64,000 nt of DNA from Schmidtea nova (lineage: Eukaryota). A program made the translations under genes and the position numbers. The stretch covers positions 333,870,001 to 333,934,000 of the forward strand of contig CM097883.1 in NCBI GenBank assembly GCA_044892505.1. The letters run 5' to 3'. A model generated the notes under the pieces. That model saw nothing but the letters and a program-made list of their open reading frames with translations. It had not been told where the DNA came from and searched no databases. This document shows, one piece after another, positions 27,634 through 28,113 of this stretch; positions within the stretch are counted from its first letter, which is position 1; each line of letters opens with the position of its first letter.

Positions 27634-28113
27634 TCATTTTCGGAAAAGAATATGTAATTCCTGATTAATTGGGGCTGTACGAAGTCTGTCCCACGTAAAC
27701 GGTGGTTGATCATCTGCGCATTCCCTTCCGAAGGACTTTCGAGGAATGAACTCCTGTAGCTTCAGTTTGCGCAGTTCCTTTCGCGGTATGTGTCCCCAGT
27801 AGATTAGTTGATTTGCCTTTTTATCCTTGCCAGTTATTCGGATCAGTAGTTGGCCGAATTTTTTCGAATAATGGCCATCTGAGATTGGCCATCCGGGGCC
27901 CCCTCTATACAGAATCTGATCTCTCCCCTTTTTCCAGATGGAAAACGGGCATTTTCTATCGAATCCCCGGCGCCATTTGTACATTTGCGCATTGATGGTT
28001 CGTAGAATTTGAGGCGGAAGTTCCTTGAGCGTGTCTTCCGTATCGCCCTCCTTGGGTATGTCCATCGAATTTCTGAGCTCGGTTAGGATCTGGGTTAGGT
28101 TTGTTACCGCCAT
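27634..28113 (-). CDS. ORF A, 159 aa, unknown function (RKCP..W..R..I..GG..PIS; YW..IPR motifs)
   Basis: Intact ORF; decayed homologue in copy D at the same position. Confidence 0.78.
   Translation of the reverse strand: MAVTNLTQILTELRNSMDIPKEGDTEDTLKELPPQILRTINAQMYKWRRGFDRKCPFSIWKKGRDQILYRGGPGWPISDGHYSKKFGQLLIRITGKDKKANQLIYWGHIPRKELRKLKLQEFIPRKSFGRECADDQPPFTWDRLRTAPINQELHILFRK

Follow-up and report, generated by a model that had tools for sequence, protein, structure and literature searches.

Introduction

According to the available portions of PMC12789967, MMTV harbours a complete gene within its LTR: The whole sag ORF lies in U3, with extra promoters and a spliced mRNA, and HIV-1 nef presents a case of overlap. 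The same source places the RexRE of HTLV-1 in the 3' LTR and has the regulators tas/bet of foamy viruses expressed from an internal promoter in env. In the invertebrate LTR retrotransposons Vesta and Juno of bdelloids, an ORF3 of coiled-coil, GDSL or DEDDy type is positioned between pol and the 3' LTR (PMC5408684, PMC6431247). Very large elements have been described as well: Ogre LTRs measure 1.9-6.5 kb, and the planarian Burro/GYPSM1 elements comprise up to 25 kb inside and >30 kb in all (PMC6431247). Ginger1 and Ginger2 combine TGT-type ends and 4-bp target duplications with inverted repeats of 40-270 bp and an integrase-like transposase (PMC2836005). The available excerpts of PMC8532177 and PMC11410931 make no mention of genes inside LTRs. 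Within the largely subscription-free full-text literature that was searched, we found neither a two-gene cassette in an invertebrate LTR nor a tandem gene pair with its own promoter in the LTR of an animal retrotransposon.

LTRs are usually considered non-coding, and a solo LTR passes for a spent remnant. Here we describe a stretch of 64,000 nucleotides of Schmidtea nova DNA, in the following called the window, in which four units (E, D, F, and G) have a non-coding 3' core of about 250 nt in common. Three of them additionally carry two reading frames, ORF A and ORF B, in a fixed order, A preceding B in 3/3 copies (Table 1). We hold it on balance probable that the units are solo LTRs in which A and B form a regulatory cassette of two genes. 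The two proteins are a real new pair, and their arrangement, though unusual, has precedents; the principle as such is known from MMTV and is not new. A conserved cassette between the LTR ends would turn each solo LTR into a potential expression unit, and A and B, which are without detectable relatives, are candidates for self-regulation of a retrotransposon or for its escape from silencing.

Table 1. Positions of the units, their parts, and adjoining elements in the window.
Feature	Position	Strand	Description
Unit E	26467-29583	-	probable solo LTR of 3,117 bp with ends TGTTGGG...CCCAGCA and target duplication AATT (4 bp)
TATA-like motif, unit E	29196-29213	-	common to unit D; CCAAT-box-like word ~25 nt upstream (29234)
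ORF A, copy E	27634-28113	-	intact, 159 aa, ATG to stop
ORF B, copy E	26880-27476	-	intact, 198 aa
3' core, unit E	26500-26703	-	conserved non-coding; possible stem-loops
piggyBac-like remnant	26029-29808	+	interrupted by unit E; inverted ends of 12 bp, with TTAA on the right
Unit D	22160-24766	+	2,607 bp, TGTTGAG...GCCAACA, 4-bp target duplication TTAT
TATA-like motif, unit D	22545-22562	+	counterpart of unit E motif
ORF A, copy D	23283-23723	+	interrupted by one in-frame stop; start region in another frame
ORF B, copy D	23988-24407	+	linker shorter, start region broken
3' core, unit D	24540-24741	+	conserved non-coding
Unit F	10986-13206	+	5'-truncated, ends CCCAACA
ORF A fragment, unit F	10989-11120	+	
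ORF B, unit F	11829-12400	+	broken
3' core, unit F	12544-12746	+	
Duplicate 3' core, unit F	12983-13185	+	
Gypsy gag-pol	8455-10986	+	degraded; DUF7041 gag, RT, RNase H; abuts unit F
Unit G	48148-48473	-	326 bp, TGTTGGG...AATAAAATCAACA; same core, without A or B

Results and Discussion

ORF A, a protein family without assignment

The initial annotation had proposed a 159-residue protein of an unassigned family with a folded domain. The reading frame indeed stands at the claimed place and is longer than expected by chance, as no ORF of its length arose in 2000 shuffles of 26800-28200 (0/2000); its product in copy E is basic (pI 10.0). The colinear alignment that had been drawn between copies E and D is borne out as well: Residues 28-119 pair with 23343-23621 (+) at 36.6% identity over 93 columns, tblastn within the window returns the match at an E of 5e-15, and the motifs cited are present. 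The local alignment score of 158 was reached by none of 2000 shuffles (maximum 51), which is the significance test that had been proposed for A. In a protein-guided alignment, which by itself favours such a pattern, identity at codon positions 1/2/3 amounts to 0.51/0.67/0.29, the third position being the most diverged, and differing codons are found at 24 of the 36 residues common to both copies. This distribution over the codon positions is expected under selection on a protein.

Only copy E is intact, an in-frame start being absent from copy D. In unit F, weak traces of A had been reported near 11570. They proved to be a chance match, since 1420/2000 shuffles score equally well; the true remnant, located at the very beginning of the unit (tblastn E 0.003), is matched by 0/2000 shuffles when compared with E but by 12/2000 when compared with D. 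The folded domain is likewise unsupported, given an AlphaFold2 mean pLDDT of 38 for the sequence alone and of 34 with a three-row alignment.

Relatives of A were sought widely. Neither Pfam nor PHROGs returned a match, the best hit among PDB sequences had an E of 1.7, and the best similarity in the ESM Atlas, 0.87, lies under the useful level. A word-seeded homology search confirmed 0/5 candidates, viral contigs yielded 0/6 and 0/40 stretches, metagenome contigs 0/269, and the three-row profile found 0 among 1,835,955,588 protein representatives with full HMMER. These libraries, like those used for ORF B, are mostly microbial, and blanks in them are no proof of absence from animals. Against 120 related gypsy Pol proteins the profile of A reached a best E of 2.7; the gag or integrase match that had been named as an alternative identity was thus not found in this comparison. 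What stands of the earlier proposal is the unassigned family, on account of the lacking Pfam, PHROGs, and PDB matches and of the shuffles, whereas the evidence cited from copy F was wrong and a folded domain is conjectural. Judged by its sequence, ORF A represents a genuine family of proteins without assignment.

ORF B, a predicted coiled-coil dimer

ORF B is composed of a predicted N-terminal coiled coil, an arginine-rich motif with 8 K/R in 12 residues, and a conserved C-terminal segment. The similarity of copy E to copy D and to both pieces in F is reached by 0/2000 shuffles each, that between D and the first F piece by 8/2000. Modelling of residues 1-93 as a parallel homodimer gave a score of 0.56, the best of three controls being 0.00, and agreement of contacts between runs is at least 65%, with a pLDDT of at least 60. 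Calibration of this dimer mark showed that it is reached by 21/30 solved pairs and 0/23 single chains from microbes, and by 17/29 solved pairs (animals 7/16) and 0/30 single chains from eukaryotes; coiled coils may, however, pass such a complex test through their likeness to solved ones. The model thereby predicts a coiled-coil dimer for ORF B.

Searches for relatives of B gave 0/126 confirmed candidates, a best value of 0.87 in the ESM Atlas, a best E of 0.18 among PDB sequences, no Pfam match above cut-off, and a best E of 0.18 for its profile against 120 Pol proteins. An identification as a bZIP transcription factor was rejected: The E values of 0.02-0.19 in copies D and F remain below the Pfam cut-off, and copy E gives no such match.

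The carrier units resemble solo LTRs

Both reading frames lie within units whose boundaries can be compared with the LTR end consensus TGTTRNR...YNYAACA (PMC3601003, in its available portion). The 5' ends of E, D, and G fit it fully (3/3), and the 3' ends agree at 6/7 positions each in E, D, and G and at 7/7 in F. By itself, a TG...CA pair with a 4-bp duplication is common, as candidates turned up in 59/136 random pairs of 900-nt windows; within windows of 30x30 nt such ends occurred in 75/19,210 chance trials. The unit ends are fixed by three further observations, namely the limits of the similarity between D and E, the constant distances of the core motifs from the end, and the splitting of an older transposon by unit E. 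Similarity between D and E, which have the same layout, starts 11-23 nt inside the 5' ends; none of 242 control windows is as similar as the first 400 nt inside the units and 1/242 as the last 400 nt, whereas the flanks outside are dissimilar (38/242 and 107/242 control windows as high). In 4/4 units, the CA end is separated by ~215-229 nt from one core motif and by ~157-171 nt from another. The transposon that is interrupted by unit E, and that we take to be piggyBac-like from its ends and translated motifs, has inverted ends at 26029 and 29808 that match each other, and its reading frame resumes on the far side of the unit.

This insertion also bears on the most sceptical reading, in which A and B are ordinary paralogues of the host or reading frames that arose by chance in the debris of repeats. 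The failure to find relatives outside the window would agree with it. Against it stand the location of unit E inside a transposon remnant, flanked by a target duplication, the presence of three copies in both orientations, and the shuffle and codon-position tests; we consider this largely refuted reading extremely improbable.

Beside none of the units in the window is there a primer-binding site or a polypurine tract, which fits solo LTRs, and no unit is paired around a gag-pol within the 64 kb, which counts against LTR membership, as such a pair would define it. Taken as a whole, the assignment of a unit as a solo LTR appears quite likely. The same absence of a paired copy, a primer-binding site, and a polypurine tract would also be expected if a unit were a non-autonomous element, complete in itself and lacking repeated ends, that an integrase-type enzyme mobilises in trans, with A and B as its own genes and G as an internally deleted derivative. 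Three gene-bearing units and a gene-less one occur within 64 kb in which no parent was seen, and D and E are colinear over their length; both observations point the same way. The ends, however, follow the LTR consensus, and G is LTR-like in size and signals. Moreover, the inverted terminal similarity of E, D, and G stops after 5-7 nt, with matches at only 7/33 (E), 10/33 (D), and 6/33 (G) positions past the first 7 nt, and no transposase or integrase was found inside a unit (Pfam for A and B; profile of A). We therefore regard a non-autonomous element as unlikely. A Ginger DNA transposon was excluded: Ginger1/Ginger2 share TGT-type ends and 4-bp target duplications with the units, but the 5-7 nt of inverted similarity stand against their 40-270 bp, and the integrase-like transposase is missing.

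The flanks of unit D (22140-22159 and 24764-24784) form a near-perfect repeat of ~20 nt, longer than the 4-bp duplication, for which a low-complexity target is the simplest reading. A search of 22000-29400 with Rfam returned two matches far under the gathering score, both outside the units.

The 3' core and unit G

Unit G was found by the 3' non-coding part (E 1.2e-10), and a profile built from E, D, and F, with G left out, recovers it at an E of 1.8e-12. Within its length it presents a TATA-like stretch before the core and an AATAAA 13 nt from the end; its flanks match over 3 bp only. In the other units, the last 60 nt hold an AATAAA in F, as in G, a variant in D, and none in E, and only G and F show a clear TATA-like word ahead of the core. 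The size of G falls within the mean lengths of 174-695 bp given for LTR training sets in Table 1 of PMC3601003. Its 5' part has no significant match to D or E (32-49/500). G could be an LTR of ordinary size; a deleted long copy is also possible. The 3' core is a probable LTR promoter/R region.

Folding of single core sequences is unexceptional, with z values of -1.66, -1.09, and -0.53. In a consensus fold, 17 of 23 pairs are changed on both sides, the fold having been derived from the same four sequences. An RNA model of the core gave only five training-related sites and one chance-level match in the window and nothing in 20 of 79 related gag-pol loci. A loose core pattern led to 120 loci, none of which has the core (best E 0.22) or A/B.

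Unit F and the neighbouring gypsy gag-pol

Unit F directly follows a degraded gypsy gag-pol, the Pol similarity of which ends at 10986, where the fragment of A begins. Within F, 12096-12325 recurs at 12749-12978 and 12538-12753 at 12977-13192, both at >99% identity, which reflects either a recent rearrangement or an assembly artefact.

The arrangement raises the question of whether the unit is the 3' LTR of this gag-pol, with a single deletion accounting for the loss of the integrase and of the LTR's first part in F. Strand and order would be the same, Pol ends exactly at the fragment of A, and a close Pol relative (locus L001) is bounded by TGTTGGG...CCCAACA, resembling the ends of E and F. 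The LTR of L001, though, is AT-rich and only 122 bp long; it stands between a polypurine tract and a word that we take to be primer-site-like. No 3' core is present upstream of the gag in the window, A, B, and core are absent from all 79 related gag-pol loci, and ends of this kind follow the general LTR consensus. A weak resemblance to the L001 LTR exists in the DNA that precedes the window's gag (4/1000 shuffles); it is the best of 1022 windows by a narrow distance (83 vs 82 and 80.5). Given the missing upstream core, the short LTR of L001, and the weak match before gag, we rate a gag-pol LTR as quite unlikely. The window's gag-pol probably owns a short LTR of its own, and the parent element of the units is probably distinct from it. 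The lack of a core upstream of gag, the short LTR of the L001 type, and the 79 loci without A, B, and core together make it probable that two elements meet in copy F.

A comparison of the DNA before gag with the AT-rich stretch after B in F was discarded: It reached 3/1000 in shuffles but 193/670 in real control windows. As to L001 itself, the LTR (1980-2101) is that of a compact gypsy element on a contig of 3,961 nt with a terminal overlap of 100 nt; the first in-frame ATG of gag lies inside the LTR, and the frame runs through the primer-site-like word. Such terminal overlaps occur in 7/79 loci, and the closest Pol relatives reside mostly on contigs of ~3-4 kb.

Candidate expression signals

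A TATA-like motif of 18 nt is common to D and E (2 matches vs 0.03 expected); it is located ~0.7 kb (D) and ~1.1 kb (E) upstream of A, and the leaders of both units are weakly colinear (0/192 control windows). Acceptor-like sites precede 4/5 start codons as compared with 154/2159 background ATGs, in a test for which two of the five starts were chosen by eye and the rule was set after the sites had been seen; A of copy E fails the rule. Splicing of A or B from a common leader is plausible on these grounds. The promoter pattern found 0 viral contigs.

The position of the best-conserved TATA-like motif upstream of A allows for a further reading, in which this is the main LTR promoter and A and B are located in a very long R/U5 or serve as gag-/env-like structural helpers. 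Proteins that package nucleic acids are often coiled-coil and basic, and B is basic with a predicted coiled coil. Unit G, however, lacks that promoter although core and both ends are present. In addition, none of six A and B sequences contains a transmembrane segment (maximum 19-residue hydropathy 0.28-0.78), and neither protein has a gag or env match in Pfam or PDB, the profile of A having also been run against 1.84 billion proteins. Both variants taken together seem very unlikely to us.

Proposed organisation of the cassette

For the solo LTR with a two-gene cassette, which we prefer, the parts could act as follows. The A-rich 5' stretch with its TATA-like promoter would give rise to a non-coding leader that is spliced to A or B, and the conserved 3' core would comprise the ordinary LTR promoter together with the R/U5 part. 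If the core is the ordinary promoter plus R/U5, the cassette sits in U3, and both genes could then be expressed even from a solo LTR; a location in U3 with a promoter of its own is rather probable, given that G has only the 3' core in common with the gene-bearing units. In this scheme, the small and basic A would bind nucleic acid; B would act in the nucleus as a dimer and contact RNA or DNA of the element, possibly the structured core, through its arginine-rich motif. That the two proteins regulate the element by nucleic-acid binding or anti-silencing, rather than contribute to particle structure, we see as nearly an even chance. In an extended form of this proposal, each LTR of the lineage would carry a module like that of complex retroviruses, consisting of a promoter, alternative splicing, a structured RNA bound by B, and an A that counters silencing or activates transcription. 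This more elaborate version is improbable in our estimate; if true, it would make solo LTRs trans-acting regulators of their family.

Relation to described systems

As far as the available descriptions reach, the locus resembles MMTV sag in having whole ORFs inside the unit, a second promoter-like motif, and acceptor-like sites. It differs in that two genes stand in tandem, the element is of an invertebrate, there is no sequence match, and the position in U3 is one that we infer; moreover, Sag is a type II membrane protein, whereas A and B have no transmembrane segment. With HTLV-1 Rex and foamy tas/bet it shares two small genes with a second promoter-like motif and a candidate structured LTR RNA, but the tas/bet promoter is located in env and not in the LTR, while the promoter-like motif here lies inside the unit. 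An arginine-rich motif is present in Rex and Rev. The sequence of ORF B contains a motif of this kind, and a pairing of B with the core in the manner of Rex and RexRE would be a conjecture by analogy that we rate as improbable.

In the accounts available of Vesta and Juno, ORF3 likewise denotes family-specific small accessory genes, some of them coiled-coil and there produced from spliced messages. These lie outside the LTR and would be lost from a solo LTR, whereas A and B stand between the TG and CA ends; neither A nor B matches an enzyme or an envelope protein. The kilobase LTRs of Burro/GYPSM1 and Ogre are comparable to the units of 2.6-3.1 kb, but their extra ORFs are described as placed in the internal region.

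Surroundings of the units

The window is AT-rich (GC 0.19-0.39 per 2 kb) and contains many transposon remnants. Coiled-coil exons of liprin-alpha extend on the + strand over 35705-58542 (Pfam LIP-1 at 35705 and 58162), with unit G between them. A reverse-transcriptase ORF of 730 aa (37134-39326, -) is framed within 36967-39926 by perfectly inverted arms of 830 nt that overlap both its ends; its C-terminal motif is presumably GIY-YIG-like, Penelope-like. DNA transposons are represented by a 363-aa ORF with DDE_1 and Tc5 DNA-binding domains at 41281-42372 and by remnants at 43764-46572 that include a Sleeping Beauty-like helix-turn-helix ORF and a DUF4371 ORF. At 49116-50299, inverted arms of 86 nt, 1,012 nt apart, enclose decayed transposase-like sequence, and 59803-60318 holds a second remnant of a retroviral-type protease (weak RVP match), near which no LTR core occurs.
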